From Parcubacteria group bacterium Licking1014_17 (GTDB lineage: Bacteria > Patescibacteriota > Minisyncoccia > 2-02-FULL-40-12 > IGHO2-01-FULL-4-A): a DNA stretch of 64,000 nt. The translations under genes were made by a program, and so were the position numbers. The stretch is taken from contig VMGJ01000001.1 in NCBI GenBank assembly GCA_007376485.1, positions 41,788 through 105,787 of the forward strand, in the 5' to 3' direction. Under the pieces are notes generated by a model. The model worked only from the letters and a program-made list of their open reading frames with translations, did no database searches and was not told where the DNA came from. Position 1 is the first letter of the stretch, and each line of letters starts with the position of its first letter. Below are positions 14,544 through 41,120 of this stretch, one piece after another.

Positions 14544-16336
<1,793 letters not shown>

Positions 16337-20029: not shown

Positions 20030-20253
20030 TATGACCTCCGATTTTGAATAGGTTAAACACGTTTTAGATTAGCATCTATTTATCGCTGTTGTTTAAATTG
20101 TCAAAGAACAATTCCGTTATACGATATTATGGGGTTTTAGTAAATAACATGAACTAGGTAAAGCCCTCGCCATTCTTCGGCAGCGGGTTATTTTTGTCTT
20201 GTTTATAACTGATTATTGTATTGTTTGCCGGCCGTGTTACGATACAGATAACA

Positions 20254-22938: not shown

Positions 22939-25900
22939 ATGAAAAGGATTGATTTAAAGAAGATCATCCATACTGGTCAGTTTTTTGCCGTGAAAAAGAT
23001 TTTCGCAACAAAAAGAACTCTCAAGCTGATTTTTGCCGCTGCCATAACAGCTACCGTCATATTTATTGTCATTTTCTCCTTTGTTAATGCCGGTCTTTTC
23101 AACTTCTATCCTCAAACCTGCCTTGGCGACTGGGAATACGCCGAAAACGCTTCCGGCAAACCCGACCTTCCTCCCGACGCCACTACCGAGAAATTTGATA
23201 AGAACAATTCCGCCTTCTTTTCCGGCGGTTACCGCAAGATATTCTGTGGCAACTTCAGAAGCAATGATGAATCCGGAGATAAAATCTTCCAGAAAGCAAA
23301 ATTGAGGTTGTCGTGGACACTCGTGCCGGACATCAACTCTGCGGTGCCTGTCATCGACCAATCCGAGTTTCAAAAAAATATACTGGATTATAGCGGGGAC
23401 GAAAAGATTATCGTGGTTCCCGATGAAGAAAAATCCGCTCCCGAAAAACAAGAGAATACGGTTTTACCTTCACCCGATGTAAGTTCATCAGCCGAAGAAA
23501 AAACACTGGAGCCGGTTCCGTCAGAATCACCCAGCCCTCAATCCGAATCGATTCCACCGACCGAGTCACCGCAATCTCCGGCGGAAGAGAATACCGCCCA
23601 AGAAAACGCTGATGTCGGCGAGCCGAGCAGTTTTAATGGAACATCTTTATTTAAAATGGGGCTTCTTGGCGTTTTCAGGACAGCGCTTACAGAGAATATC
23701 GGATCACTTCTGGGGTTAATAATGGAAATTAACAACAACAGCAGTTCCAGCTTGGAGGAAACGCTAACTCCTACAGAGCCCTCGGTTTTCATGCCCGAAA
23801 TAAGTATGGAGACGACTTCTGAAAAAGTTGAAACAAGTTCTACGCCCGCGAGCATTGCCGCCGGCGACGGCACGGCCTCAAAATCGGAATCCCCTCTGGA
23901 AAAAGAAATAATACCGCCAAAATCTTTGGATGATTTTCTTGAAATACTTTACAGCGTTGACGGCAAAAACTGGGAATCCATCGGCAATGTAAATCTTGAC
24001 AGTTTCAATAACGCCGAATTTGAGGTGCCTATTATTTCATGGAACGAACTGGCGAATCTCCAAATCAGAATCGGCGGGACGGGGCTGACGGACAGCGTGA
24101 GCGGAGTGTATTTGGACGGGATGTGGCTGGAAGTCAGTTATAGCGACAGTCAAGACGAGGTTGTTAGCGAGGATATAATGAGGGGATTGCCGAAAGTTCA
24201 GGTCAAAGACTCGGACGTTTTCAAATCAAAGAAAAAAGATTTTCGCTTTAACGAAGACGTGAAGTTTGAAATTAATCTTGGAAAAACGGCTTCCGGGAGC
24301 GTTGATGAAAACACGAAACCGCCAGCAACGCCTGAACCGTCGTCGCTTCTCAAAAATTCTTATAAAAATATTTTGGGCGCCGAGAGCGCCTTAGCCGCCG
24401 GCAGGATTGTTGAAGCCAGAGTATACAGCCCGACCGGCAAGCTGACAAATATAAAACCGTATATCAAGCAAGATACGGGGACTGAAACCGCGCAAATCTT
24501 TTTTTCGCCGCCCGGGCGAGCATACAAATCGGGCAAATACAAACTGGTCGTTGAGATTCTTCAGGATGACCGGGTAGTTGTGGCGGAACACGATTTTACC
24601 TGGGGTGTCCTTGCTTTGAACGCCAATAAGTCCATCTATATACCGGGCGAGTCGGCTTATCTTCAGTTCGCTTCGTTGAGCAATATAGGGCACACTTTGT
24701 GCGACAGCAATCTTGAGCTCATTATCACTCCGCCAAAAGGGCCAGAGTGGGTATTAAGCGTAGAGGACGGCGATATAAAAAGGAGCGACACCTGCGGACC
24801 CAATAATTATACCGACAAACCGGATTACTACGCGTATTACACGCCCGAATACACGGGCGCTTACGGACTCACACTGAAAAATTTGGATAACGGGAATGAA
24901 ATAACCGACTCCATTCAAGCCGACGGTTTGGTTGATATGGATGTGGAACGCGTCGGTGCGACGCGCATTAATCCGTTTTTGGGACAGAACTATTTTACGA
25001 CCATTAATATCAAAGCAGGTCAGCCTTTTGAGGGAGAAATTGTGGATACGCTCCCAAAGGGATTTGTGGTTATGGGCAGTTCCGATTACATTGTCCGCAA
25101 AACACCGACGGGCGACGTAGAAGTAGTATGGAGAAAAATTTTATTGCGTGGGGACACGGCTATCCTGACCTATGAATATGACCCGGCTGATATCTCGCCG
25201 GAGCTGTTTCTTCTGGGTCCGTTAAAATTTATCGCGAAGTCGGATCCGCTATCGTCTTTTTTTCAGGAAGCGCGCCAGTGGCAACTGGCGTCGGATTATT
25301 CCTGCGTCGCAAAAGCGACCGGCGCCTGGAGTGCCAGCGGCACTTGGACAACATGTAATTCAACCACACCCCAACCGACGGATACGGTTACAATCGCCAC
25401 AACATATGTTGTGACATTGGATACTTCGGCTACCATCGCCGGTCTTAGCCTTGCAAACACAGCTCAACTGAATCATCCCGGCACAAATGCCCTAACTGTG
25501 AATGGTTCAGTTGCCCTTACACCGCCGCCGACAGTCAATTTTAATCAATGGAACATTGCGGGAGGTACCGCGACCGTAACCGGCGCGATAACGTGGGGTG
25601 CCGGTGGCAGTTCAAAGGTATCTAAGATTTTAATTACAACCGGAACATTAAATGCCAGTGGCGGATTATCATTCGGCTGCCTTAATTACCCGGCAAGCTG
25701 CCTTATTGATATGTCGGGGGGCGCGGGCACTTTAAATTTAAGCGGCGCCATAACAAGCGTAACCAAAGGGCAACTAACGGCCGGGACCACCAGCACTTTC
25801 GTATACGCTGACCAGAGTGCCGACCAAACAATACAAATGGCTTGGGGCGGCGGCAGTTACAATAATCTTGGAATTAATAACGGCGCTAAGGTGGCAACCG

Positions 25901-28900
25901 TAGCCGAAAATATAACGACATCAAACGTGAGCGGTAGTATAACAGTTACCAGTGGCACTTTCAACGCCAGTAATGTTACGATTGCGGGCAACAGCGGCAA
26001 AACATTTGAGGTTGATAACGGAGCCACCTTCACGATGAGCGGCAATACAACTTTTCCGACCGGCTTTTCCACGTTTACTTTTCAGAGCACGAGCACCACA
26101 AAATACGGACAGAGTGTGGATTCGGATATTTCGGCGCAGAGCTATGGTTATCTGATAGTCAGTCCTGTTGCCGACCCCTCCAGCCACAGCGCTGATTTTT
26201 ATCTTGCTTCGGGAACCATTTCCACCGCCAGTGCTTTTATTGTCGCTTTGGGTTCCGCTGCCACTTCAGTTTTTGTTAATGCCGACACGAACGACCCGAC
26301 TCTTGATATAAACAGTTATTTGTCCATAGGCGCGAGCACGACTTTTCAGGCTTCAAATTCCGGAACTTTCACCATCAACGGCAGTTTGTTTAACGCCGGC
26401 ACGTTTACCCACAATAGCGGCACCGTCACTTTTGACAGCACCGCGAGCGGCAGGGGGATAAATATGAACGGCAGTTCACTATATAACTTGACGATTAACG
26501 GTTCCGGCGGCGAATGGTCGTCGCTCACAAATATGCTGACAGTAGCCAATGATTTAATCTTGACCGCCGGAACTTTAAACAATGCTTCCGGCAGTGCGGA
26601 CATTGAAGTCAACGGAAACGTTTCCTGTAACGGCACCTGCGGCACAGTCAGTTTGACAGCCGGAAAGTTTACCCAGAAAGTTGCCGCCGACAAAAATTTC
26701 GGAACGTCAGTGGCTGTTGCCACTGCCTGGACTTTCAATGCCTTGCATTTCACCAACAGCAGCGGCACCGACAGGATAATCACAACCAGTACCACCGGCA
26801 CCGGAACCATCACCGTAACAGCTTCCATGTCCATCGGCGTTTTCAGCGCCACCAACAAAGCCACGCTTGACGCCGACCACAGAACCTGGATTTTAAGCGG
26901 AAGTAATGAAGCCGATGCACACATTCCTCTTTCCATTGACGCCACCAAAGGAGCTCTAACCGCTCACGCATCGATTTTCCGCTACACCGGCAGTTCCACT
27001 ACCACAATCGAGGCGGCAACCTACTACAATCTTGAAGTAAAACCCGGTGGTGCCGTGACCCATACTTTCAAAGCGGGGACGACGACGGCTTACACTTTAA
27101 CCGCGGGAGACGGATCCAATAGCGGAACAATAACCACCAATACCAATAGCACGACCCTTGATATTGGTTTTGGAGGAGTTTCTATAGCTGCCTATGGCAC
27201 TCTCGTCGCCCATGCCAGCAATGCTTTTACTGTTGAAGGTTCATGGACAAACGCCGGCACTTTTACTCATAGTAGCGGCACGGTAACTTTTGACGGAACG
27301 ACGGTAGCTTCAATTCCAGTAACAACCGGCGGCAGTTCTTTCAATAATTTAATGATAGCGGGAGCGGGTAACTTCGCATTGCAGGATTCAACGACAATCG
27401 CCGGCGATTTGAAAGTAAACAGCGGCACCTTTTCTGGTGGCGTTGTCACGACTGTTAACGGCGACGTAACTTGTGTTACCACCTGCGGCACGATAAACTA
27501 TGCCAGCGGTATTTTTATACAAAACGTTGCCGGAAACAAAGCCTTCGGCACTACCGCCGGTACTGCTACGTGGACATTTAATGTTCTTCACTTTGCCGCC
27601 AGTGACGGTACTGACAGGGTGATTACCGCCAGTTCGGGTGGCACCGGAACCATCACCGTCACTGCCTCCATGTCCATCGGCGTATTCAGCGCCACTAACA
27701 AAGCTACGCTTGATGCCGGCAACAGAACATGGATTTTAAGCGGAAGCGACTCAAACGGTGATTCTCCCCTATCTATAGACGCCACTAAGGGCGCCTTAAC
27801 CGCTAACACGTCAACTTTCCGTTATACCGGCAGTTCAGCCACTACGATTGAGGCGGCTACTTATTACAATCTTGAAGTAAAACCCGGCGGCGCCGTGACC
27901 CATACTTTCAAGGCGGGGACAACAGGAGCAAATCATTTACTTACTATTGGCGACGGAGCTAATAGCGGAGTCGTAACAGCAAATACCAACAGTACTATTT
28001 TGGATGTAGGCGACGGCACAAGCGGCAGCGGCGTTTCAATCGCCGCCAGCGCCACGCTGACGGCCAACGCCAGCAACGGTTTCACGGTTTACGGCTCATG
28101 GACAAACGCCGGCACGTTTACCCACAGCAACGGCACGGTTACCTTTGACGGGGATGATGACTTAATTAGCTTTACCCTTACTCCGGCAAGCAGTCCATTC
28201 TACAATCTGACCGTAAATAATACGGGAGGCGCAATATGGACATTACAAAGCGGTCAGACTCTTATTGTAGCTAACGATTTATATATTAACGGCGGGACAC
28301 TGAACGACGATAGCGCTACTGCCATGGTTTTTAACGGAAACGTAACCTGTTCGGTGACCTGCGGTATTATCAACACCTCTGCCAATGTTATCCAAAACGT
28401 TGCCGCCAATAAAGTCTTCGGCACTACTGCCGGCACCGCCGCCTGGACTTTCAAAGCCCTTCATTTTGCCAACAGCAATGGAACCGACAGATTAATCACT
28501 ACCAGTTCGGGTGGCTCCGGAACCATCACCGTCACTGCCTCCATGTCCATTGGCGTTTTTAGCGCCACCAATAAAGCTACGCTTGATGCCGGCAATAGAA
28601 CTTGGATTTTAAGCGGGAGCGACTCAAACAGTGATCCCCCCTTAACTATTGACGCCTCCAAAGGGGTTTTGACTGCCAATACATCTACATTCAGATTTAC
28701 CGGTAGTTCCGCCACCACAATCGAACAAGCGACTTATTACAACCTTGAAGTAAAACCCGGCGGCGCCGTGACTCATACTTTCAAAGCGGGAACAACAGCG
28801 GCTTACGGGCTAACCGCTGGAGATGGAGTCAATAGCGGAGTCATAACGGCCAACACCAACAGCACAATCCTTGATATAGGTTTTGGGGGAGTTTCCATAG

Positions 28901-31227
28901 CCGCCAACAACACCCTTATTGCCCATGCCAGCAATGCTTTTACCTGCGAAGGTTCCTGGACAAACGCCGGCACATTCACCCATAGCAACGGCACGGTAAC
29001 TTTTGACGGAACTGGTTCCCACACAATTAATAACGGGGATAAAACCATTAATTCTTTTTACGGTCTAATAATTAATAAGGCGGGTGGAGTTTGGGATGTT
29101 ACGAGCAATGATATTGTAGTTCAATACTCACTTACAATAACAGCGGGAACTCTTGATTTAAACGGGCAGGGGTTATCTGCTAGTCTGACTTTGGTCAATG
29201 ATGACACTCTGCGTCTTCAAGGCGGTGAAACGATAACTGGATTAACTATGGACACAAATTCGGGGACAGTTGAATATGATGGCACTACCGGATACACCGG
29301 GCTTAAGGCAGGAAATGAATATTTTAATCTGAAATTTAGCGGTTCCGGAGGTTCTTGGACGTTAAATCATGACTTAGTCGTAAATGCCACTTTTGCTATT
29401 ACAAACGGAACAGTGGATGCGTCCGGTTCAAATTATGATATCAGCGTCGGCAAAAGCTGGAATAATGCCGGAACGTTCACCGCCCAGCAGGGTGCGGTCA
29501 CTTTTGACGGCAATTTTAATGTGGCGACATGGGGTATCACAACTGGCAGTAGTCCTTTTTATGATTTGGTAATAATCGGACCCGACCCCTATATGATCAG
29601 TAGCGACATTACTGTCCAAAACGATTTGGACGTGAACGGAAGCACCTTAAACGGCTTTGGTTCAAATGTCATGACCGTCAATGGAAATGTTACCTGCGTC
29701 ACTACTTGTGGCACTATTTCTGGATTAAATCTTTTCCAGACTGTCAGCGCAAACAAAGTCATTGGGCCCGTTACCGGCACGAACGACTGGTCGTTTGGTT
29801 TTCTTCATCTGTCCACTTCCGGAGGTTCGGACAGAACCATTACCGTGAACAGCGGAGGTAGCGGGGCATTTGCCGTGGCTTCCTCCATGTCCATCGGTGT
29901 TTACAGCGCTTCCGCGAAGACCATTCTTGACGCGGACAATAAGACATTTATATTGAACGGCAGCGACGAAGCCGATGGAGATGTTCCGTTCACCGTCGGC
30001 GCCAACGGCACTTTTACGCAAAATACTTCCACTTTCAGATTCGCCGGCACTTCGGCGACCACCGTTGCTGCGGGAACTTATTATAATTTGGAAATAAAAC
30101 CGGGCGGAACAGGCACTCACACCATAGCAAGCGGCGCTTTGAAAACGAATAATAATTTTGTAATTGGCGACGGGACGCATACCGGCTCGGTAAACGCTAC
30201 GACAAACGACCCCAATATCAACGTGGACGGAAGCTTTTCAATCGCGGCGAGTTCCGAGTTTGTTGCTTCTGACGCCGGAACATTTTCAATAGCCAAAAAC
30301 TTTTCGAATTCCGGCGCATTTACCCATAGCAATGGCACGGTAACTTTTGACTCACTTAACAACAGCACCGTCAGCGGCTCTAATACAATCTTTTATGGTT
30401 TATCGATGGCGACTGACAACAAAAAAATGAGGTTCACTGCCGGGCAGACGTTTGAAACTGACGGATTGATGACGCTTGGCGGTTCCGATGCCGACAATCA
30501 GGTTCAAATCGTTTCTACCGCCTCTGATTCGCAATGGTTTATAAATCACCAAGGGACCGAAAGCGTGAACTATACGTACGTCCATGATTCGGGTTGCGAC
30601 GCTTCCTCAACGGACATAACAGTTACTACGGGTACCGACGGCGGCAACAACGGGCTATGCTGGGTGTTCGATTATAATATAACGGTTGCGCTCTGTTCGG
30701 ATCCCGACATTGATTTTGGAACTTTGGCGCCGGGCAGCGGCAGGGTTACCAGAACCTCGTGTATTTCGATTAACACCAACAATCCCAGCGGTTATTCGAT
30801 CAGCGCCGGAAGGGACCGGGCAAGTCCGGCAACCACGCTTGCCTCCGAGGGGGATACAAGCATTAATATTTCCGATACGCTGAACGGCATTGATGTTTTT
30901 GACGGATTATCCAGTTGCACCGCCAGCCCCAATATAACTTCGCCGTGGGTTGAAGGTGCGTCAACAGGCCTCGGCTATGTTCTTTATAGAGCCGATGTCG
31001 GTAAAAGCACAACATGCTGGGGCACGGGGACAAACGAAACCGATTCCGCGAACCGATATGCTGCCTTGCCGGCTTCAAATGGACCGGCGGATGTATTTTT
31101 GAATGTGCCCGTAAATTCTCCGAATCCTTCCTATTCTTCGGTCGGCTGGAGTTTGGATATCCCCACAAATCAAATTCCCACTTCTTACGGCGGTATGGTG
31201 ATTTATTCAATTACCGCTAATCCTTAA
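22939..31227 (+). CDS. giant (2762 aa) repetitive cell-surface protein
   Basis: N-terminal TM, S/P/E-rich linker, ~285-aa tandem repeats ('TFTHSNGTVTFDG..TGTITVTASMSIGVFSATNKATLDAGNRTWILSGS..'), C-terminal ~230-aa domain shared with 33669..34433. Confidence 0.85.
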   Translation: MKRIDLKKIIHTGQFFAVKKIFATKRTLKLIFAAAITATVIFIVIFSFVNAGLFNFYPQTCLGDWEYAENASGKPDLPPDATTEKFDKNNSAFFSGGYRKIFCGNFRSNDESGDKIFQKAKLRLSWTLVPDINSAVPVIDQSEFQKNILDYSGDEKIIVVPDEEKSAPEKQENTVLPSPDVSSSAEEKTLEPVPSESPSPQSESIPPTESPQSPAEENTAQENADVGEPSSFNGTSLFKMGLLGVFRTALTENIGSLLGLIMEINNNSSSSLEETLTPTEPSVFMPEISMETTSEKVETSSTPASIAAGDGTASKSESPLEKEIIPPKSLDDFLEILYSVDGKNWESIGNVNLDSFNNAEFEVPIISWNELANLQIRIGGTGLTDSVSGVYLDGMWLEVSYSDSQDEVVSEDIMRGLPKVQVKDSDVFKSKKKDFRFNEDVKFEINLGKTASGSVDENTKPPATPEPSSLLKNSYKNILGAESALAAGRIVEARVYSPTGKLTNIKPYIKQDTGTETAQIFFSPPGRAYKSGKYKLVVEILQDDRVVVAEHDFTWGVLALNANKSIYIPGESAYLQFASLSNIGHTLCDSNLELIITPPKGPEWVLSVEDGDIKRSDTCGPNNYTDKPDYYAYYTPEYTGAYGLTLKNLDNGNEITDSIQADGLVDMDVERVGATRINPFLGQNYFTTINIKAGQPFEGEIVDTLPKGFVVMGSSDYIVRKTPTGDVEVVWRKILLRGDTAILTYEYDPADISPELFLLGPLKFIAKSDPLSSFFQEARQWQLASDYSCVAKATGAWSASGTWTTCNSTTPQPTDTVTIATTYVVTLDTSATIAGLSLANTAQLNHPGTNALTVNGSVALTPPPTVNFNQWNIAGGTATVTGAITWGAGGSSKVSKILITTGTLNASGGLSFGCLNYPASCLIDMSGGAGTLNLSGAITSVTKGQLTAGTTSTFVYADQSADQTIQMAWGGGSYNNLGINNGAKVATVAENITTSNVSGSITVTSGTFNASNVTIAGNSGKTFEVDNGATFTMSGNTTFPTGFSTFTFQSTSTTKYGQSVDSDISAQSYGYLIVSPVADPSSHSADFYLASGTISTASAFIVALGSAATSVFVNADTNDPTLDINSYLSIGASTTFQASNSGTFTINGSLFNAGTFTHNSGTVTFDSTASGRGINMNGSSLYNLTINGSGGEWSSLTNMLTVANDLILTAGTLNNASGSADIEVNGNVSCNGTCGTVSLTAGKFTQKVAADKNFGTSVAVATAWTFNALHFTNSSGTDRIITTSTTGTGTITVTASMSIGVFSATNKATLDADHRTWILSGSNEADAHIPLSIDATKGALTAHASIFRYTGSSTTTIEAATYYNLEVKPGGAVTHTFKAGTTTAYTLTAGDGSNSGTITTNTNSTTLDIGFGGVSIAAYGTLVAHASNAFTVEGSWTNAGTFTHSSGTVTFDGTTVASIPVTTGGSSFNNLMIAGAGNFALQDSTTIAGDLKVNSGTFSGGVVTTVNGDVTCVTTCGTINYASGIFIQNVAGNKAFGTTAGTATWTFNVLHFAASDGTDRVITASSGGTGTITVTASMSIGVFSATNKATLDAGNRTWILSGSDSNGDSPLSIDATKGALTANTSTFRYTGSSATTIEAATYYNLEVKPGGAVTHTFKAGTTGANHLLTIGDGANSGVVTANTNSTILDVGDGTSGSGVSIAASATLTANASNGFTVYGSWTNAGTFTHSNGTVTFDGDDDLISFTLTPASSPFYNLTVNNTGGAIWTLQSGQTLIVANDLYINGGTLNDDSATAMVFNGNVTCSVTCGIINTSANVIQNVAANKVFGTTAGTAAWTFKALHFANSNGTDRLITTSSGGSGTITVTASMSIGVFSATNKATLDAGNRTWILSGSDSNSDPPLTIDASKGVLTANTSTFRFTGSSATTIEQATYYNLEVKPGGAVTHTFKAGTTAAYGLTAGDGVNSGVITANTNSTILDIGFGGVSIAANNTLIAHASNAFTCEGSWTNAGTFTHSNGTVTFDGTGSHTINNGDKTINSFYGLIINKAGGVWDVTSNDIVVQYSLTITAGTLDLNGQGLSASLTLVNDDTLRLQGGETITGLTMDTNSGTVEYDGTTGYTGLKAGNEYFNLKFSGSGGSWTLNHDLVVNATFAITNGTVDASGSNYDISVGKSWNNAGTFTAQQGAVTFDGNFNVATWGITTGSSPFYDLVIIGPDPYMISSDITVQNDLDVNGSTLNGFGSNVMTVNGNVTCVTTCGTISGLNLFQTVSANKVIGPVTGTNDWSFGFLHLSTSGGSDRTITVNSGGSGAFAVASSMSIGVYSASAKTILDADNKTFILNGSDEADGDVPFTVGANGTFTQNTSTFRFAGTSATTVAAGTYYNLEIKPGGTGTHTIASGALKTNNNFVIGDGTHTGSVNATTNDPNINVDGSFSIAASSEFVASDAGTFSIAKNFSNSGAFTHSNGTVTFDSLNNSTVSGSNTIFYGLSMATDNKKMRFTAGQTFETDGLMTLGGSDADNQVQIVSTASDSQWFINHQGTESVNYTYVHDSGCDASSTDITVTTGTDGGNNGLCWVFDYNITVALCSDPDIDFGTLAPGSGRVTRTSCISINTNNPSGYSISAGRDRASPATTLASEGDTSINISDTLNGIDVFDGLSSCTASPNITSPWVEGASTGLGYVLYRADVGKSTTCWGTGTNETDSANRYAALPASNGPADVFLNVPVNSPNPSYSSVGWSLDIPTNQIPTSYGGMVIYSITANP
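26395..29010 (+). repeat. tandem ~856-nt (285-aa) intragenic repeats, 3 near-identical units plus degenerate units to ~30.4 kb
   Basis: Unit starts marked by 'GGCAC.TT.AC.CA.A..A.CGGCAC.GT.AC.TTTGAC' at ~26398, 27258, 28110, 28966; long identical stretches e.g. 'GTCACTGCCTCCATGTCCATCGGCGT' recurring. Confidence 0.8.
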
Positions 31228-31230
31228 CTT

Positions 31231-33588
31231 ATGTTTATCAGGGATGATTTTATAAATAGTTTTGATTATATTCTCTACAGGATAATCAGGTTCGGCATTC
31301 TGTTCGTGCCGTTTATTTCTCTGGTTGTAATTAGGAATATTTATTCGCCGTTTGAATTCAGTAAAGGGATTGTTTTCCGGGTAATCACCGAAATAATTTT
31401 TTTCATTTATGTTTATCTGGCGTTTAAATATCCGAATCTCCGCCCGTCTTTTTTTAAAAAAAGGCCGGATAAATATGTGCTGGCCGGTTTGGTCGCCTTA
31501 GTGGTTCTCGTAGTATGGCATTTTATTTCCGGATTATTCAGTTCAAGCTGGACTCTTAGTTTTTGGGGCTATATAGAGAGGATGGGCGGCATTTTCGCGT
31601 TGCTTCACTATATCGCTTTTTTTGGAGTTGCCGCTTCAATACTGCGCACGAGGAAAGAGTGGGAAAATCTTATCTGGGCTTCGGTGGCGGCGGCGCTGAT
31701 TTCATCAGTTTACGGCATTCTGCAAAAATATTCCGTAAGCGCGGTTGTCGGCGCGGACCAGAGGTTCAGAATTTTCGGGACCGTCGGCAACCCGGCTATA
31801 TTCGCCGGCTATCTGCTTTTTAATTTCTATTTTGTTTTATACCTGTCTTCGCGTCAGGAATCGAAAATACGCAGATTCCTTCTGTATTTCGCCGCATTCA
31901 TATTCGCATCCGCGATAATTTTGTCAGCCTCCCGGGGAGCGGCGGCGGCTCTAATTGTAAGTTTTGTTTTTTTGATTTTTTATATTCTGTATAAAAAAAG
32001 CGCCAGTCCATACGGAAAAAAGAAGAGCTTGATTATCGCGGCGCTCGCGGTAGTCATTATTGCCACAATTTTTTCCGGGATTGTATTAACTCGTTCCGGG
32101 TCCGGGCTCGGATATTTTTCCAGACTGACCGATTTCAGTGTGAAGAGCGGCTCCATAAATTCGCGGTTGCTTGTCTGGGGCATGGCGCTAAAAGGGATAG
32201 CCGAAAAACCGGTTTTGGGCTGGGGTCCCGAAAATTTTATAGCCGTTTATTACAAGAAATACGACCCTAAAATGTATGAGTCGCCGGCTCAAGATTATTC
32301 TTCTGACAGGGCTCATAATATTATTTTGGATTGGCTGGCTGCCGTCGGTGTTGTGGGCTTGCTGTCTTATCTGCTGATTTGGTACTGCGCGATAAGGAAA
32401 ATTGGCGCCCGGGATTACAATGATATGCCGTATTTTTCTCGAGGAGCGCTTTATGCCGCCGCCGTCGCGTATTTTGTTTTTAATTGCACTTTTTTTGACA
32501 CGACTAACACTTATCTGATGGTTATTTTTTTTATGGGCTTGGCTTTTCTTTGGGACGATTATGTGGCAGACGGAGTGGCGACAAAAGTGCCGGAAGGTAA
32601 TACCCCGGTCAACACCGTAGTCGGCGTATTGGCTCTGGTTTCCTGTTCTATTTTAATTATCTGGGCGAATATCCTGCCGTTTCTGTCAAACTATTATACA
32701 AATATGAATAAGAGGGCAAACAGCAGGGGGGATTTCGGGGAAGCGTTTAAGTATCTTGAACTCGCGAGAAACACCGCCACATGGACGGAAACCGACGCCG
32801 TGAGGAATTTAACTTCAGAACTGATAACCGCCCTGAACACGCAAGCGGATTATTTTAAAAACGAAGATAACAGAAAATCTTTCGGGGTTATCGCGCAGGA
32901 TCTTCGCGACGAGATGGAAAAACGTCCGGAGGACGCCGCTTCGTACACTTTTTTATTTAAAATGGAACAAATACTCGCGGCAAATTTTGGAAAGCAGATT
33001 AAACCCGTTGAAGATACCATCTGGACAGCAACCGCCATATTTCCCAAATTGATTCCGCTTTATTATGAACTTTATTACAGCGCCTTGATACGAAATGATT
33101 TTGAAGGAGCCACGAATGTAGCGAACAAAATATTGGAAATCAGACAGGACTTGCCCTTTGGAAAGTTTTGGCTCGCGTATGTCATAACTCGGAAGGATTT
33201 AAACGATAAAAATAGGACAAAACTGCGGAGTTCTTTAAATACCTTGGGCGACAGCTTTGACAGTTCGTTGTTTAACGCAGGCGATAATTACGGCAGTATA
33301 AAACCGTTGCTTGACGAGTTGAGTTATAAATTAAGGAAGACGGGTTATTATCTGGAGATGAGAGATTTGCATTTAATGATAGCAAAATATAAGCCTTCAA
33401 GTTATGTTTATGCGAGCTACGCGAGTTATATGATGCGTGACTTAAAATCAGCCATGAAATACGCCGACGAAGCGCTCGCTCTTGACAATAGCCTAATGAG
33501 CAGTAAGGACTATGAAACATTAGCCGACATTTATGGGGCATTGGGTGATAGAAAAAAACAAGGAGAAGCATACATAAAGATTCAATAA
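31231..33588 (+). CDS. Wzy_C (O-antigen ligase / O-oligosaccharyltransferase-like) polytopic membrane protein with C-terminal TPR repeats
   Basis: 785 aa; ~12 TM helices; 'SASRGAAAALIVSFVFLIF' matches Wzy_C/RfaL/PglL-type ligase core; C-terminal ~300 aa of TPR-like helical repeats ('DYETLADIYGALGDRKKQGEAY'). Confidence 0.65.
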   Translation: MFIRDDFINSFDYILYRIIRFGILFVPFISLVVIRNIYSPFEFSKGIVFRVITEIIFFIYVYLAFKYPNLRPSFFKKRPDKYVLAGLVALVVLVVWHFISGLFSSSWTLSFWGYIERMGGIFALLHYIAFFGVAASILRTRKEWENLIWASVAAALISSVYGILQKYSVSAVVGADQRFRIFGTVGNPAIFAGYLLFNFYFVLYLSSRQESKIRRFLLYFAAFIFASAIILSASRGAAAALIVSFVFLIFYILYKKSASPYGKKKSLIIAALAVVIIATIFSGIVLTRSGSGLGYFSRLTDFSVKSGSINSRLLVWGMALKGIAEKPVLGWGPENFIAVYYKKYDPKMYESPAQDYSSDRAHNIILDWLAAVGVVGLLSYLLIWYCAIRKIGARDYNDMPYFSRGALYAAAVAYFVFNCTFFDTTNTYLMVIFFMGLAFLWDDYVADGVATKVPEGNTPVNTVVGVLALVSCSILIIWANILPFLSNYYTNMNKRANSRGDFGEAFKYLELARNTATWTETDAVRNLTSELITALNTQADYFKNEDNRKSFGVIAQDLRDEMEKRPEDAASYTFLFKMEQILAANFGKQIKPVEDTIWTATAIFPKLIPLYYELYYSALIRNDFEGATNVANKILEIRQDLPFGKFWLAYVITRKDLNDKNRTKLRSSLNTLGDSFDSSLFNAGDNYGSIKPLLDELSYKLRKTGYYLEMRDLHLMIAKYKPSSYVYASYASYMMRDLKSAMKYADEALALDNSLMSSKDYETLADIYGALGDRKKQGEAYIKIQ

Positions 33589-33668
33589 TCTACCTGTGGA
33601 TAATGCTATTTGCGCTTGTTTGCAGGGGGTTTATAATTAAATGAGTTTATTAATTACCTACACATACC

Positions 33669-34433
33669 ATGAGTAAAAAGCCGTCGTTTTTCTCGGCGAG
33701 TGCCGAATTGAAGGTTGTGGTATTCGTTGCCGTGTTTGTCTTCTTTTCTTGGATTTTTATTGATAACAGAATCTATTTTAATTTTTTTAAATCGTTGGAC
33801 GCCAACGCGGCCACAAGCGGAACGGCCAGCCAAAATATGAGTATTGATGTGGGTGTGGGGCTTACTTTCGTGAAATACAGCAGTGTTGCATGGCGCAATG
33901 ATTCGGAGACTCCCACGAGTACTATAACTTCCGGCACTCCTCTGCATTCTACGCAAGCCTTGCAGGTTACGACTAACGACAATTACACAATATCGGTCGG
34001 TCGAAAAAGGCAAAGCCCCAATACGACACTCGCTTCGGCCAGCGATGTGACTATTCATATAGAAGATGCGAGTACAGGTATTGATGTTTTTAACGGGCTG
34101 GCAAATTGCACTACTGCTACAAGCACGACAGCCTACTGGCCTGTCACGGGAGCTGTATCAGTCGGTATTGGCTTCAGCAACTGGAAAACCCAGATTGCCG
34201 GCGATAAAAGCTCTTGCTGGGGAACGGGGACTGTAGATAATGAATCTACCCCCTCCACAAATAGATATGCCGCGCTTCAAGCGTCAGCCAGCGCCAGTAC
34301 GTTTTTGTCAACTACTAATCATCCCTTGGGGGTTTCGTATTTTTCCGTCGTGTACCGACTAGACGTAACGGCTAGCCAAAGAGCCACCAACTATTCAGGC
34401 ACGGTTAATTATACGGCGACTACCCAACCCTGA
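33669..34433 (+). CDS. small surface protein sharing the giant protein C-terminal domain
   Basis: 254 aa; N-terminal hydrophobic anchor; aligned motifs with end of giant protein: 'IDVF(N/D)GL', 'SCWGTGT', 'NRYAAL', C-terminal 'Y(S/G)G(T/M)V.Y..TA'. Confidence 0.7.
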   Translation: MSKKPSFFSASAELKVVVFVAVFVFFSWIFIDNRIYFNFFKSLDANAATSGTASQNMSIDVGVGLTFVKYSSVAWRNDSETPTSTITSGTPLHSTQALQVTTNDNYTISVGRKRQSPNTTLASASDVTIHIEDASTGIDVFNGLANCTTATSTTAYWPVTGAVSVGIGFSNWKTQIAGDKSSCWGTGTVDNESTPSTNRYAALQASASASTFLSTTNHPLGVSYFSVVYRLDVTASQRATNYSGTVNYTATTQP

Positions 34434-34475: not shown

Positions 34476-35405
34476 ATGATGAAAAGATTTAACAAGAAAA
34501 TAATAATAACACTGGTGATTATTTTGGGTGTTTTTATGTTATCTCTTGGTTTTGTTTGGGCGATAGGCGTGGGGATATCCATTTCTCCATTGAAATATAA
34601 ATATAGTGTCGACCCAGGCACGGTTATAGATGATGTGATTAATGTCGGCAATCCGAATGCAGGTGATCTTAGAGTGAAGGTTGAGTTTCAGGATTTTATG
34701 GTTACCGAGGGTAATAATATCAAATGGATTCCAAACGACATCGAGAACCCCCATAAAATGGTTGACTGGATTGATATTGATACGGAGCCGTTTACGGTGG
34801 CCCCGGGGAAACAGGTAGCCGTGCCCTTTAAAATAAATGTCCCGAAAAACGCCACTCCGGGAGGAAAATACGCGGCAATATTTTTCAGCGAGGCGGATAA
34901 AGGTGGCGGAAATTTATTAGGCGCGATCGCACGTGTCGGGTCACTGATTATTATGAATGTTAATGGTGACGTCAAGCAAACCGGGCAGCTGGTTGATTTC
35001 ACCGGGCCCACCATAGCGTGGAGCGGACCGGTCAATTTTGTTCTTAGTATGATGAACGTGGGCACCACGCATTTTGAGGTAAAGCCGGTGGTCACGATAA
35101 ATAATTTTTTCTGGCAAAGCGCAAAGATATTGCCGGAGTCAAAATTTATTTATCCCAATGTCAAGAGAGATATTCCGATTAAATGGGAGAAAAGCAATCC
35201 GTTCGGATTGTACAGCGCCAAAGTTTCCGTAACCGATGGGGAGGGGACTGTTTTTGAGAAAACAAAATGGTTTGTCGCAATTCCGGCTACATATGCCATA
35301 ATAATACTGGCCGTTGTTTTGGTGTTATGGTTTGGAATCAGGTTCTTTAAGCATACGTTCAAAATTTCCAAGATTATTACCAGAAAAAGCAGATCGGCAG
35401 CCTGA
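34476..35405 (+). CDS. surface protein with signal peptide and C-terminal TM anchor (paralog 1)
   Basis: 309 aa; N-terminal TM/signal, 'PGGKYAAIFFSEA', C-terminal 'AIIILAVVLVLWFGIRFFKH' + basic tail. Confidence 0.65.
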   Translation: MMKRFNKKIIITLVIILGVFMLSLGFVWAIGVGISISPLKYKYSVDPGTVIDDVINVGNPNAGDLRVKVEFQDFMVTEGNNIKWIPNDIENPHKMVDWIDIDTEPFTVAPGKQVAVPFKINVPKNATPGGKYAAIFFSEADKGGGNLLGAIARVGSLIIMNVNGDVKQTGQLVDFTGPTIAWSGPVNFVLSMMNVGTTHFEVKPVVTINNFFWQSAKILPESKFIYPNVKRDIPIKWEKSNPFGLYSAKVSVTDGEGTVFEKTKWFVAIPATYAIIILAVVLVLWFGIRFFKHTFKISKIITRKSRSAA

Positions 35406-35424
35406 TATTAATTATTATTTAATA

Positions 35425-36303
35425 ATGCTTAGAAACTTTCTAGTTATTGTTGGCGTAGCTTTGGTTACGTTGTTTTTTCCCTTTTTTGTCCATGCTTACC
35501 AGGGAGGAATTCTTTTGGATCCCGTAAAAATCGAACTTGACGTTTTTGCGGGACAGGCGGCATCTAGAGAGATAACAATTACGAATCAAAATCCGTTTGC
35601 GGTGACGATCAGTCCGGAAGTGATGAATTTTAAAGTTAGTGAGAACAGCGAAATTCACTGGTATATCGGCGCGATTTCAGACCCATTGCGGAGTTCGGCC
35701 TGGCTGGAGGTAGACGAAAAATCCTTTGTCCTTAAATCCGGCGAAGCAAAAAGAGTCGGAGTCAGCGTGGCAATACCCGCCGATACCCAACCGGGCGGTA
35801 GATATGCGACCGTTTTTTTCAACAGCAAGCCCGTTGATGCTCAAAATAAAAACGCGGACGTAAGAGCCGGCACTATGGTTATCATCAATGTACCCGGCGC
35901 CATCAGTAAAGCCGGGAATATTGTCGGTTTTAATTCGCCTTTATTCGTCATCGGCGGGCCGCTTGATTTCATCGTAAAATTCGCGAACACCGGCAAGACG
36001 CATTACAACACCAAAGCGACCCTGAAAATATCCAATTTATTCTGGAATGTCGCCAATATTTCAAGCGACCAAAAATTTTTATATCCGGACGTCATACGCG
36101 AGATTCCGATCAAATGGAACACGGCTTCCCTTTTTGGCATCTACACCGCGCAGCTGTCCGTTACCGACGGCCAGGGCGTCGTACATACGGCAGAGAAACA
36201 TTTTGTAGGCGTTTCCATCAAATATTTGGCGCTGCTCATTGCCTTAGGATTTATTGCCTGGTTTGGGAGAAAAAAACTTCTGGCCAGAAAAAGTAGCGCG
36301 TAA
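35425..36303 (+). CDS. surface protein with signal peptide and C-terminal TM anchor (paralog 2)
   Basis: ORF open from 35314 but upstream gene ends 35405; ATG 35425; 'PGGRYATVFFNSK', C-terminal 'YLALLIALGFIAWFGRKKLLARK'; co-linear similarity with 34476 gene. Confidence 0.65.
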   Translation: MLRNFLVIVGVALVTLFFPFFVHAYQGGILLDPVKIELDVFAGQAASREITITNQNPFAVTISPEVMNFKVSENSEIHWYIGAISDPLRSSAWLEVDEKSFVLKSGEAKRVGVSVAIPADTQPGGRYATVFFNSKPVDAQNKNADVRAGTMVIINVPGAISKAGNIVGFNSPLFVIGGPLDFIVKFANTGKTHYNTKATLKISNLFWNVANISSDQKFLYPDVIREIPIKWNTASLFGIYTAQLSVTDGQGVVHTAEKHFVGVSIKYLALLIALGFIAWFGRKKLLARKSSA

Positions 36304-36319
36304 TTTATTTCTCTAACTA

Positions 36320-36964
36320 ATGGTTGATAAGTTTTCACACAAGATATTTTTTGTGTTCCTGTTTGCAGCCCTGGTTTTTATTTGTATAACAAAAGTATAC
36401 GCGGCAGATCCAGTAGACCAAAACGTTACTATAACCGTAGGGCAAACCGGTATTGTATATTTGAATTTTACTTTTAGCCCCCAAGGCAGATGGACCGGCG
36501 GAGGAAATAATGACGCGTCAAATGTTGTCGTTGAGGTAAGACCCGTAGACGGCAATAAGGACAGTATAATTTTTAGCGAGGAAGTGACTACCGACAACAG
36601 CGGCCAATATTCATCCTTGCTTCTGGATAATGTAAGTCCGGGAACATATGACGTGAGCGCCAAGGGTTGGGCAACTCTAAGAAAAAAGGAGGTAACCGTA
36701 ATATTGGCGGAGGGCAATAACACCATTGATTTTACCGACACGGGCGCCGATAAAGCCCTCTCCGGAGATTTGGATTCAACGACCCGGGTCGGAAGCGCCG
36801 AAAGCGGTGATAACGAAATCAGCGCCGCCGATTATTCAACTTTGATCGGAAATTACAATACGGTGCAGGACAGGTATGATTTGGATAAATATACGGACCA
36901 GTTAATCGCCGGCCCGGATTATTCAATTCTTGTATCGAATTATAGCCAAGAAGGCGACCAGTGA
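36320..36964 (+). CDS. secreted protein: carboxypeptidase-regulatory-like domain + dockerin-like tandem Ca-binding repeats
   Basis: Signal peptide 'FFVFLFAALVFICITKVYA'; 'LDNVSPGTYDVSAKGW' (CarbopepD_reg-like); C-terminal duplicated 'GDLDSTTRVGS..ISAADYSTLIGNY' / 'DRYDLDKYTDQLIAGPDYSILVSNY' dockerin-like. Confidence 0.55.
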   Translation: MVDKFSHKIFFVFLFAALVFICITKVYAADPVDQNVTITVGQTGIVYLNFTFSPQGRWTGGGNNDASNVVVEVRPVDGNKDSIIFSEEVTTDNSGQYSSLLLDNVSPGTYDVSAKGWATLRKKEVTVILAEGNNTIDFTDTGADKALSGDLDSTTRVGSAESGDNEISAADYSTLIGNYNTVQDRYDLDKYTDQLIAGPDYSILVSNYSQEGDQ

Positions 36965-36977
36965 TGTTTTATAAAAA

Positions 36978-37658
36978 ATGAATACGCGCTTTTCAGTCAA
37001 AATTATTTTTTTTACCGCCGTTCTGGCATTAGTTATTATTTTATTGGCATTCAACAACAAGGAGAGCCGAAATAACGGTAATAATTTGATAACCGTCTAT
37101 GGAAATGTGTTAAATGCCCGGGATAATCTTCCCCTTGGCAGTGTTACTGTCCAATCGGGCGAGTCCAGAAGCGTAACTGATTATCAGGGCAAATTTGTCT
37201 TACTGAATGTCCCCCGAGACGGTGAAATAAGGATTGAAAGCGGAAACTTATATGAAGAAGTTATTATTCCTATTAATGGGCGATCGAACATTACCGTTTA
37301 TCTGGATGGAGATTTGCTTGGAATTTTTCGGGATATTGAGCGATATGAAAACAACAGGCAATATTCAAAAATCTATGACCTATTTACGCCTGATTTAAAA
37401 AAACATTACACGCTGGATGCTTACTTGAAAAAAAAGAATAGCTGGCGCGATAACATTACGGAGGGAAAAAATTATGACGGGTTCAAAATGGAATTTCTGC
37501 GCCATACCGTCAAAGGCGGCAATTCTTCATCTATTATAACGGTTACTACTAAATATTCCTGGCTTAAGGGCGAGGAAACTAAATATATTCACGCAATTGA
37601 TGTAAAATTAATATGGGACGGCAACATCTGGGAGTTGGGCAATGATTTGATCTGGTAA
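36978..37658 (+). CDS. membrane-anchored protein with carboxypeptidase-regulatory-like domain
   Basis: 'VYGNVLNARDNLPLGSVTVQSGESRSVTDYQGKFVLLNVPRDGEIRIE' matches CarbopepD_reg-like beta-sandwich pattern. Confidence 0.55.
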   Translation: MNTRFSVKIIFFTAVLALVIILLAFNNKESRNNGNNLITVYGNVLNARDNLPLGSVTVQSGESRSVTDYQGKFVLLNVPRDGEIRIESGNLYEEVIIPINGRSNITVYLDGDLLGIFRDIERYENNRQYSKIYDLFTPDLKKHYTLDAYLKKKNSWRDNITEGKNYDGFKMEFLRHTVKGGNSSSIITVTTKYSWLKGEETKYIHAIDVKLIWDGNIWELGNDLIW

Positions 37659-39956: not shown

Positions 39957-41120
39957 ATGGTTTTTTCTATTCTGAAAAAAGATAAAAAAACGAAAGCCCG
40001 GCTGGGGATTTTGCGCACCGCCCACGGTAATATTATGACCCCGGCTTTTATACCGGTGGGAACGCGCGCAGCTGTGAGGTCGCTGGCTTCCGATGAAATA
40101 AAATCTTCCGGCGCGCAGGCGATTCTGGCTAATACCTACCACCTCTGGCTTCAGCCCGGTGATAATTTAATAAAAAAAGCCGGCGGTTTGCACAAATTTA
40201 TGGACTGGGATGGACCGATTTTTACCGACAGCGGGGGATTCCAGATATTTTCGCTCGGCGAGCGCAAATGGTCTGCGGCCCCCCACCAGCACGCAGGTGG
40301 GGGATTCTTGAAAAATAGCGGCAATAATTCGCCGTTCAACGTAAAAATAAGCGACGATGGGGTTTCATTTCAATCAGGAAAAGACGGAAGCGTCCACAAA
40401 CTCACACCCGAAAAATCCGTCCGGATTCAAGCCAATCTCGGGAGCGATATTTCACTGGTTCTGGATTATTTTTGCGGTTATCCGTTTAAGCGTGAATCAG
40501 CCGAGAAATCAGTTGAGCTGACGACTAAGTGGGCGGAAAGAGCCGGAAAAGAATTTTTAAGAATTAAAAAATCGGCGGTCAACAAGGGGCAGCTGCAGTT
40601 TGGGATTATTCAGGGAGCGGGTTATAAAAAATTGCGCGAAAAATCAGCCAAAGAAATTTCGGCCTTGGATTTTGACGGCTATGCCATCGGCGGGGTGGCA
40701 GTGGGCGAACCGGAGAAATATATGTATCAAGCCGTTGAATTTTCGGTGCCTTTTTTGGAAGAAAACAAACCCCGCCATCTTCTCGGCGTCGGCACGCCCG
40801 AAAATATCATTGAAGCCGTCAAACGCGGCTGTGACACTTTTGACTGTGTGATTCCCACCCGCGAAGCAAGGCACGGGAAGGCGTACATTTTTACCGGCGA
40901 AGGATTAAAATATAAAACCATGGACATCAAGAAAAAAATGTTTGCCGGTGATTTTAAATCTCTCGACCCGAACTGCGACTGTTTCGCCTGCGCCCGCCAC
41001 ACCCGCGCCTATATCCACCATTTGTATCAAATCAAAGAAATCCTCGGCTTGCGTTTAATGACAGAGCATAATTTGATGTTTTATAATCGGCTTATGGAAA
41101 AAATACGGGCATCCGTTTGA
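39957..41120 (+). CDS. tgt: tRNA-guanine transglycosylase (queuine tRNA-ribosyltransferase)
   Basis: 'FTDSGGFQIFSL', 'LGSDI', 'GVGTPENI..GCDTFDCVIPTR', zinc site 'CDCFACARHTRAYIHHL'; ~25-aa insertion after 'FSLGE'. Confidence 0.85.
   Translation: MVFSILKKDKKTKARLGILRTAHGNIMTPAFIPVGTRAAVRSLASDEIKSSGAQAILANTYHLWLQPGDNLIKKAGGLHKFMDWDGPIFTDSGGFQIFSLGERKWSAAPHQHAGGGFLKNSGNNSPFNVKISDDGVSFQSGKDGSVHKLTPEKSVRIQANLGSDISLVLDYFCGYPFKRESAEKSVELTTKWAERAGKEFLRIKKSAVNKGQLQFGIIQGAGYKKLREKSAKEISALDFDGYAIGGVAVGEPEKYMYQAVEFSVPFLEENKPRHLLGVGTPENIIEAVKRGCDTFDCVIPTREARHGKAYIFTGEGLKYKTMDIKKKMFAGDFKSLDPNCDCFACARHTRAYIHHLYQIKEILGLRLMTEHNLMFYNRLMEKIRASV

Follow-up and report, generated by a model that had tools for sequence, protein, structure and literature searches.

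A Parcubacteria locus as a probable CPR version of the WxL/WxLIP surface complex, with an unannotated C-terminal domain on a giant and a small protein

At one locus of the ultra-small Parcubacteria group bacterium Licking1014_17, a giant protein and a small protein have an unannotated C-terminal domain in common. The two genes directly downstream of the small gene encode true relatives of WxLIP (DUF916-DUF3324-TM), the obligatory, membrane-anchored partner in Gram-positive WxL clusters. We consider it rather likely that this locus is the CPR version of the three-component WxL/WxLIP ("Csc") surface complex of Gram-positives. The shared domain would take the place of the WxL domain, once as a small protein of its own and once at the very C-terminal end of the giant, with the giant in the "large WxL" role and the 254-aa protein in the "small WxL" role. 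All components would be exported by Sec. We infer that the two basic, C-terminally membrane-anchored WxLIP-like proteins physically dock to the shared domain, probably by inserting a β-strand that completes its sandwich; the giant would then be held non-covalently on the cell surface and displayed there as an adhesin, its repeat region free to contact a host or substrate. Positions below refer to the window, that is, the whole stretch of 64,000 nucleotides that was analyzed.

The last 235 aa of the giant and the 254-aa open reading frame were aligned by BLASTP with composition-based statistics, and 71 of 163 positions were identical (44%, E=9e-29). This bears out the common C-terminal domain proposed by a sequence-only reading of this DNA, and the landmarks quoted there (SP.TTLAS..D..I.I.D...GIDVF.GL..CT, CWGTGT, NRYAAL.AS, and Y.G.V.Y..T..P) are all present in the alignment, while the proposed length of ~230 aa is corrected to ~163 aa (BLAST) or ~185–205 aa (family profile). 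The giant's copy occupies aa ~2578–2762 (nt ~30670–31224, + strand) according to BLASTP and the family profile, the latter matching aa 2563–2766 of the giant's open reading frame (E=2.4e-48); that of the small protein occupies aa 48–254 (nt ~33810–34430, + strand) according to BLASTP and its AF2 model. The giant's residues upstream of "DYNITVAL" ("...NNGLCWVF") belong to the preceding module, which is also found on an upstream 879-aa paralogue, and its domain copy has no equivalent of the N-terminal extension of the small proteins. Both cysteines of the small protein (C147 and C183) are kept in the giant (C2660 and C2693) and in close relatives. Searching all six-frame open reading frames of the window with the giant C-terminus (phmmer) found only these two copies (small protein, E=4.6e-31). 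With the small protein as the phmmer query the giant was not recovered, probably owing to the HMMER filters acting on a target of such biased composition; BLASTP and the search in the opposite direction do recover it. Both proteins are enriched in T, S, G, and N, as would be expected if their likeness were a chance or low-complexity effect between two T/S/G-rich sequences, but we give this explanation virtually no credence and have rejected it: the BLASTP statistics allow for composition, Q, Y, W, and G positions are invariant across the >100 family representatives, and the small protein has a confident AF2 fold.

A search of 1.84 billion proteins at E<=1e-3 gave 114 representatives of the family (~114 clusters at 50% identity), every one of them from an uncultured or CPR genome. 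The domain lies <=12 aa from the C-terminus in all 115 proteins checked. About 60% of the members are small proteins (190–270 aa) that consist of a signal peptide and the domain and otherwise nothing; the remainder, up to 2854 aa long, carry varied passengers, including the DUF5122 propeller, LamG, BNR, FN3, WD40, and DUF285, and such diversity is typical of a shared module for anchoring or docking. The shared domain has no match among Pfam or NCBIfam models; it is a new, unannotated module of ~190 aa, predicted to fold as a β-sandwich, that lies outside Pfam coverage. Weak Pfam matches to Lipocalin_9 (E=0.04) and DUF6423 were dismissed as noise. A type IV pilin was rejected for lack of a G|F..E class III signal and a sortase substrate for lack of LPxTG, a motif found in none of the nine cluster proteins.

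The locus spans ~20.2–36.3 kb of the window, possibly reaching 39.8 kb, with its genes on the + strand. It opens with the gene for the 879-aa secreted protein (20221..22860), a paralogue of the giant's repeat region with a Pro-rich tail and without the shared C-terminal domain; the two proteins are 39% identical over 744 aa (BLASTP, E=1e-113), and aa 403–828 of the former match aa 2145–2577 of the giant, directly before the shared domain. The giant itself (2762 aa, 22939..31227) is 100% identical to TSC91942.1, a hypothetical protein of the same bacterium, and matches DUF6423 weakly and nothing else in Pfam. Its N-terminal hydrophobic segment (signal or anchor) is followed by T/S/G/N-rich repeats of ~285 aa, marked by YYNLE (four times) and FTH[SN] (five times), and by the shared domain; the repeat region is adhesin-like and probably beta-helical. 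Between the giant and small genes lies the gene of a 785-aa polytopic membrane protein (31231..33588) with a Wzy_C domain (O-antigen ligase/polymerase-like; Pfam PF04932, E=7.3e-21; NCBIfam IctB and glyco_rpt_poly matches below cut-off) and a TPR-like C-terminal half; with no counterpart at the equivalent position in the six other loci described below, the gene is probably accessory. The small protein (254 aa, 33669..34433), identical to P0001 (also annotated as a hypothetical protein of this bacterium), has an N-terminal hydrophobic helix at aa 12–41, which carries a conserved W..(Y/I)DN..YF..F motif, a possible cleavage site at ANA|A, and thereafter only the shared domain.

Two tandem paralogues follow. 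WxLIP-like protein 1 (309 aa, pI 9.6, 34476..35405) consists of a signal peptide, a DUF916/PGBD-like β-sandwich, a second β-sandwich, and a C-terminal TM helix, and WxLIP-like protein 2 (292 aa, pI 9.5) is encoded at 35425..36303 from the ATG at 35425; a longer open reading frame (35314–36303) overlaps the gene of protein 1, and its TTG is probably not the true start. Three further secreted-protein genes (36320..39815), encoding proteins of 214 aa (CarboxypepD_reg-like), 226 aa, and 718 aa (Big_5 Ig-like, with a poly-Gly run), are co-directional with gaps of 0–16 nt and may be in the same operon; the next gene is the housekeeping gene tgt (39957–41120).

The relationship of the two paralogues to WxLIP rests on several comparisons. 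Protein 1 matched Pfam PF06030 with E=1.4e-4 and 22.3 bits, under the gathering score of 27.3, which its orthologue in locus L001 exceeds with 27.8 bits; protein 2 has no PF06030 match, and DUF3324 (PF11797) was never matched by the CPR WxLIP-like proteins. The two paralogues are 33% identical over 298 aa (BLASTP, E=7e-61), and protein 2 gave a profile match of E=3.7e-133. When eight CPR orthologues were compared by hhalign with WxLIPs from Listeria, in whose locus Pfam confirms a WxL gene, and from an Enterococcus faecium locus, the match reached 95.7% (E=1e-8) and extended through both domains for 229 columns, against E values of 0.28–0.7 for reversed controls (0.38 for the Firmicute comparison). 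The CPR set matched actinobacterial DUF916 proteins still more strongly (hhalign, 99.4%, E=4.5e-21), and 12 of 20 tblastn matches of protein 1 against plasmids were annotated DUF916. A C-terminal TM helix together with a pI of 9.5–9.6 is also found in WxLIPs of Listeria and L. plantarum (PMC10599100). Both the domain-bearing and the WxLIP-like proteins have N-terminal hydrophobic export segments, which, with the two conserved cysteines, fits an extracytoplasmic location.

This gene set is conserved. In all seven loci compared (the window plus L001, L003, and L012–L015), one large member, one to three small members, and one or two ~300-aa WxLIP-like proteins are encoded adjacently and in the same direction. 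In other CPR loci a tiny protein of 66–107 aa is encoded 3' of the WxLIP-like gene, and it ends in a hydrophobic segment in both loci inspected (L001 and L003). A WxL cluster has been defined by one or more WxLIPs together with two or more WxL proteins, one small (signal peptide and domain) and one large (adhesin domains and the C-terminal domain, often beta-helical; PMC9772566; PMC10599100), and the layout of the locus agrees with this definition in every item. The placing of one domain on large and small proteins at a single locus, for which the sequence-only reading had claimed a likeness to WxL/Csc by architecture only, is thus upheld, and given the WxLIP-homologous downstream genes, which that reading had overlooked, the analogy is firmer than architecture alone. 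A different explanation is that the domain is a generic β-sandwich acting by itself in binding carbohydrate, S-layer, or wall, its adjacency to DUF916 genes reflecting co-regulation only. The GH123 glycosidase N-terminal sandwich among its fold matches, the Wzy-like glycan polymerase/ligase gene inside the locus, the lack of detectable WxL homology, and published docking that suggests GlcNAc/MurNAc binding by WxL (PMC9772566) are in line with such a role, which we nevertheless regard as quite improbable, since WxLIP-like synteny holds in seven of seven loci whose family members are only 25–40% identical, the same trio is present in Firmicutes and Actinobacteria, and the C-terminal position of the domain is strict.

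Homology of the shared domain to WxL is not demonstrable from sequence. PF13731 (WxL), which matched the Listeria WxL protein with E=1.3e-57 as a positive control, had no match in 66 small members (E<=0.05) or 36 large members (E<=0.001). When 177 domains of the family were aligned with 118 WxL proteins by hhalign, P was 0.07, with 0.17–0.22 for reversed controls, and the last 24 columns alone gave a probability of 20% (P=1.1e-3); in comparisons with WxL proteins and with the partner proteins of Actinobacteria and Deinococcus, run alongside reversed sequences as controls, nothing was significant beyond the C-terminal strand. Trp-x-Leu motifs are absent from the shared domain, with Tyr at the corresponding positions. 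The C-terminal motif ...VP..Q..G.Y.G.vt.t may be generic, because it also occurs in unrelated β-sandwiches such as the GH123 N-domain; the search of the family profile against PDB sequences returned just a 27-residue motif match to a GH123-type enzyme (E=0.23).

The AF2 model of the small protein (pLDDT 81.6) shows the helix at aa 12–41 followed by nine β-strands, and its fold appears to be a pilin-like β-sandwich with marginal scores. The AF2 model of the Listeria WxL protein is also a pilin-like β-sandwich with marginal scores and an overlapping pilin set among its matches, the comparison being an indirect one, through the PDB match lists of the two models. The sequence-only reading had named a match to a well-known unrelated family, for example a pilin, as speaking against its proposal; a likeness exists in fold only and at marginal scores, and WxL itself matches overlapping pilins, so the proposal is not refuted.

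The pilin-like fold is also the basis of the main competing explanation, in which the locus would build a donor-strand-exchange (DSE) fibre and the shared domain would be a pilin-type incomplete Ig-like fold. Small proteins would polymerize head-to-tail through their N-terminal extension, the giant, with a pilin domain without the extension, would form the tip, like FimH or PapG, and the WxLIP-like two-β-sandwich protein would be a membrane-anchored chaperone or base capping the last groove. Mature small proteins open with a conserved strand-like A-T-D-T-V-T-L-S-T-T-V, in which positions 6, 8, and 12 are 85–98% hydrophobic, and AF2 leaves the corresponding aa 48–63 of the window's small protein, with alternating hydrophobics, unplaced (pLDDT 52–61). 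In the window giant and the large members nearest to it, the domain begins after this stretch (profile start 38–47); other large members do carry the stretch. The one to three small paralogues per locus recall major and minor pilins, and a Deinococcus DUF916-like gene annotated Mfa2 has a small-protein gene on one side and the gene of a large CarboxypepD_reg protein on the other. The DUF4402/SCPU pilin models PF14352 and PF05229 gave no significant match, PF14352 matching 8 of 66 members weakly (best E 0.0025) and none of the window proteins. In Firmicutes, AF2 predicted that WxLIP completes WxL by a strand in trans (PMC10599100), which suits both explanations; the fibre partly overlaps the WxL/WxLIP-type complex that we favor, and could be the true mechanism of WxL clusters generally.

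Compared with known DSE fibres, such as chaperone-usher and TasA-type systems (Fim/Pap, Csu, CupE/SCPU, CFA/I, TasA-TapA, archaeal bundling pili, cannulae, and TLP-1 fibrils), the locus is alike in predicted fold class, in a two-domain tip protein sharing the pilin domain with small subunits, in the strand-like N-terminal extension on the small proteins, and in the C-terminal G.Y.G.(v)t.t motif. It differs in having no sequence homology, marginal structural scores, and no outer membrane, and Pfam/NCBIfam scans of the cluster genes and nearest flanking genes revealed no PapD-like chaperone and no outer-membrane usher; polymerization is hypothetical. We hold a fibre at this locus to be unlikely, and likewise the wider idea that DSE pilins in CPR and Gram-positive WxL clusters form usher-independent, membrane-anchored fibres of polymerized small subunits with a giant adhesin tip and a DUF916-type membrane-bound chaperone or base. 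If true, such fibres would represent a novel type of monoderm pilus and a candidate episymbiont-host attachment apparatus.

CPR bacteria live on hosts, and little is known of the machinery by which they attach. To our knowledge, WxL/WxLIP clusters have been described almost solely in Lactobacillales and Bacillales, and are viewed as a gut-commensal or virulence feature; they were reportedly described by Siezen in 2006 and by Brinster in 2007, binding of the domain being said to have been assayed on sacculi or whole cells in the latter work. Our literature searches found no paper connecting WxL or DUF916 to CPR. The locus offers a candidate, testable means of holding giant surface proteins on CPR cells, and the domain profile combined with WxLIP adjacency provides an annotation handle that flags surface-displayed proteins among hundreds of "hypothetical" MAG genes.

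Conservation of the WxLIP component extends to CPR/Patescibacteria, in which it goes together with another C-terminal domain family, one that is unannotated; the component also has close relatives in Actinobacteria and Deinococcus. Among the loci compared (Clavibacter, Cellulosimicrobium, Streptomyces, and Deinococcus plasmids), the CPR WxLIP-like proteins are most closely related to the DUF916 proteins of Actinobacteria and Deinococcus (hhalign 99.4% and 99.1%). The DUF916 genes of Clavibacter and Cellulosimicrobium each come after a gene for an unannotated small protein of ~210 aa; the one in Cellulosimicrobium is in turn followed by a gene for a large LamG/GH43 protein, and there are GH43 genes near the one in Clavibacter. 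These small proteins of Actinobacteria are distantly homologous to WxL (hhalign 91%, E=1e-6), and their match to the CPR domain is confined to the last ~23 residues of the latter (P=0.06–0.09).

The WxL/WxLIP systems of Lactobacillales and Bacillales (PMC9772566; PMC10599100) differ from the present locus in their Firmicute rather than CPR/Parcubacteria host. Here the large protein is 3–5 times longer, there are two WxLIP-like genes with a Wzy-like gene inserted, the small LPxTG protein that is frequent but not obligatory in WxL clusters is lacking, and the shared domain has neither a PF13731 match nor Trp-x-Leu nor significant profile-profile likeness to WxL. Both have the same three-part gene set, including a basic protein of ~300–350 aa with two β-sandwiches and a C-terminal TM helix; the domains end in a similar motif, L.VP....G.Y/H...(I/V)T(W/Y)T...P, which aligned in register, and the third component is truly homologous (hhalign 95.7%).

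The sequence-only reading proposed that the giant protein (2762 aa, 22939-31227) and the small protein (254 aa, 33669-34433) share a C-terminal domain, and BLASTP with the last 235 aa of the giant confirmed this (44% identity over 163 aa, E = 9e-29), with every landmark quoted in that reading lying inside the alignment. Its length of ~230 aa was an overestimate; the domain actually covers ~185-205 aa and starts in the giant at 'DYNITVAL' (aa ~2578), the preceding '...GLCWVF' being part of a module that also ends the 879-aa paralogue of the giant. Both Cys of the small protein are kept in the giant and in relatives, and a third copy of the domain is absent within the window. The small protein and the giant are 100% identical to the 'hypothetical proteins' CEN90_59 and CEN90_57 of Parcubacteria group bacterium Licking1014_17, the CPR MAG from which the window derives.

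The domain is matched by neither a Pfam nor an NCBIfam model. Searched by profile, 1.84 billion representatives yielded 114 proteins at E ≤ 1e-3 (19 at E ≤ 1e-30), and a second search (5.8 billion clusters) recovered 83 further proteins with no precomputed Pfam domains, the few named ones all being 'hypothetical protein' from MAGs of 'bacterium', 'Patescibacteria group', or 'Parcubacteria group'. All 115 proteins that were checked have the end of the domain ≤12 residues from the C-terminus. Approximately 60% of the family (190-270 aa) consists of a signal peptide and the domain only, and the remainder is 300-2854 aa in length. Large members carry unrelated passengers (DUF5122 propellers, LamG, BNR, FN3, WD40, and DUF285), all N-terminal to the same module, an arrangement typical of domains that anchor or dock proteins. 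A giant member on a JGI contig (L013 1-8582, 3703 aa) contains PT-HINT/intein-splicing domains, which suggests autoprocessing or toxin-like cargo on some large members. The leader is unusually long in the closest CPR small proteins (window 33669-33810, aa 1-47; P0002, P0003, P0005, P0009, P0017, P0025, and P0027), running from a hydrophobic helix to a conserved W..(Y/F)DN..Y(F/Y)..F motif and, ~15 residues on, an A.A-type site; it may serve as an anchor that stays uncleaved or as a specialized sorting signal. In more distant members the signal peptide is of the ordinary kind.

The region between groEL (14708-16336) and tgt (39957-41120) contains nine consecutive genes in one orientation, spaced 0-80 nt apart: the 879-aa paralogue (20221-22860), the giant, a Wzy_C/TPR membrane protein (31231-33588), the small protein, two paralogous ~300-aa WxLIP-like proteins (34476-35405 and 35425-36303), and three more secreted proteins (36320-39815). 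Across 744 aa, the 879-aa protein has 39% identity with the giant; it has no shared docking domain, terminates in a Pro-rich tail, and may represent a form of the giant's adhesin-like module that is secreted or anchored in another way. The Wzy_C (O-antigen ligase/polymerase-like) protein with its TPR-like tail starts 3 nt past the stop of the giant, and its gene is missing from all six other loci compared. Together with two nearby PMT_2-type glycosyltransferases (10642-14015, minus strand), it hints at glycosylation of surface proteins or wall. Of the last three genes, one (36320-36964) encodes a 214-aa protein that combines a CarboxypepD_reg-like domain with an acidic, dockerin-like tail rich in D and N, and another (37659-39815) encodes a 718-aa secreted protein with Big_5 Ig-like domains and a stretch of 17 Gly in a row that precedes a Pro-rich segment. 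Directly upstream of the cluster, three consecutive divergent ORFs of 300, 479, and 221 aa (17020-20029, minus strand) gave no Pfam match at E ≤ 1e-3.

The 309-aa protein adjoining the small protein matches Pfam WxLIP_PGBD (DUF916) below the cut-off (E = 1.4e-4), and the orthologue on a second CPR contig exceeds it (27.8 bits vs. a gathering score of 27.3). Searching plasmids with this orthologue by tblastn gave 20 weak matches, of which 12 bear the annotation 'DUF916 (and DUF3324) domain-containing protein'; the sources are Listeria, Enterococcus, Latilactobacillus, Streptomyces, Clavibacter, Cellulosimicrobium, and Arthrobacter. In profile-profile comparison, eight CPR orthologues matched WxLIPs of E. 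faecium and Listeria, the latter from a locus in which Pfam confirms a WxL gene, over 229 columns representing both beta-sandwich domains (95.7%, E = 1e-8); they also matched actinobacterial DUF916 proteins (99.4%, E = 4.5e-21) and Deinococcus proteins (99.1%), with reversed-sequence controls at E = 0.28-0.7. With WxLIPs as described (PMC10599100), the CPR proteins share a signal peptide, a C-terminal TM helix, and a basic pI (9.5-9.6 in the CPR proteins).

Six further CPR loci, found via different family members (L001, L003/L004, L012, L013, L014, and L015), all show the same gene order: a large member, two or three small proteins consisting of the domain only, a single WxLIP-like protein (302-314 aa), and usually a tiny protein. 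The large proteins are 456-1962 aa if complete; four are interrupted at a contig or locus end, with ≤3703 aa recorded. The tiny ORFs (66-107 aa) lie 3' of the WxLIP-like gene (L001 11498-11788, L003 12278-12496, L012 11060-11383, L013 11580-11843, L014 15083-15334, and L015 3704-3904), and both translations inspected (L001 and L003) end in a hydrophobic, TM-like segment. They may correspond to the small LPxTG (CscD) protein found in Firmicute clusters; none was identified in the window.

The shared domain itself is not demonstrably a WxL domain. PF13731 matched 0 of 102 family members scanned and detected a Listeria control at E = 1.3e-57. Against 37 WxL proteins, hhalign aligned only the last 24 columns, in register (family LDVP.tQ.sG.YsG.VtyTAT..P vs. 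WxL L.VPaGsAt.G.h.atItWTL.daP; probability 20%, P = 1.1e-3), and 177 family vs. 118 WxL sequences gave a best P of 0.07 (reversed controls, 0.17-0.22). The C-terminal strand is also the sole region aligning with actinobacterial and Deinococcus partner proteins (P = 0.03-0.09). Because a similar motif occurs in a GH123 beta-sandwich, it is insufficient alone for WxL kinship. Unannotated ~210-aa proteins encoded immediately upstream of actinobacterial DUF916 genes (L009 6101-6727, Clavibacter phaseoli pCCh; L010 6067-6711, Cellulosimicrobium protaetiae pCPRO01) are remote WxL homologues (hhalign vs. Firmicute WxL, 91%, E = 1e-6) that PF13731 does not detect. WxL-type clusters thus reach Actinobacteria, beside GH43 and LamG enzymes, and WxLIP-type partner domains are more diverse than the Pfam model. 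The CPR family is therefore either the most divergent WxLIP partner domain or an independent replacement.

Structure prediction by AF2 (pLDDT 81.6, pTM 0.69) gave the small protein a TM-like helix (12-41), a low-confidence stretch (42-64), and a nine-stranded beta-sandwich. Judging from the models, the CPR and WxL domains would be pilin-like sandwiches of one broad class, at marginal scores, which is compatible with common ancestry and no proof of it. For the Firmicute proteins, AF2 predicts that WxLIP inserts a hairpin strand into WxL, next to the N-terminal strand of WxL, so that the sandwich is completed (PMC10599100). From fold class, synteny, and the homology of one partner, we infer as the probable explanation that the CPR domain would dock by such strand complementation on the membrane-anchored WxLIP-like proteins, holding both the small protein and the adhesin-like giant at the cell surface. 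It is rather unlikely that the domain instead belongs to a donor-strand-exchange fibre, although mature small proteins begin with a conserved, alternating segment (A-T-D-T-V-T-L-S-T-T-V) whose equivalent in the window small protein AF2 left unplaced, this segment is missing from the giant of the window and from large proteins closely related to it, and each locus has several small paralogues; against it, ~40% of large members carry the segment fused to upstream domains, and structural scores are marginal throughout.

TLP-1 fibrils, which PMC11494351 describes as donor-strand-exchange polymers of unknown origin obtained from pond water filtered at 0.22 µm, resemble the CPR domain at the fold level only. 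In the diderm Deinococcus (L008 7444-11292, Deinococcus deserti plasmid 2; L011 5950-11523, Deinococcus sp. NW-56), a DUF916-like protein annotated FimB/Mfa2, without a C-terminal TM helix, is encoded between small secreted and CarboxypepD_reg-rich (839-1013 aa) proteins, an arrangement reminiscent of pilin-chaperone-usher. Full-text literature searches found no paper joining WxL or DUF916 to Patescibacteria/CPR and, one general review apart, none on WxL and donor-strand exchange. We rate the locus as a known three-component surface-display system, new in its phylum and its partner domain family. By definition, a WxL cluster combines one or more WxLIPs with two or more WxL proteins, typically a small and a large one, of which the latter has host-binding, often beta-helical, domains before its C-terminal WxL domain (PMC9772566, PMC10599100), and this published anatomy is exactly the layout of the window locus.
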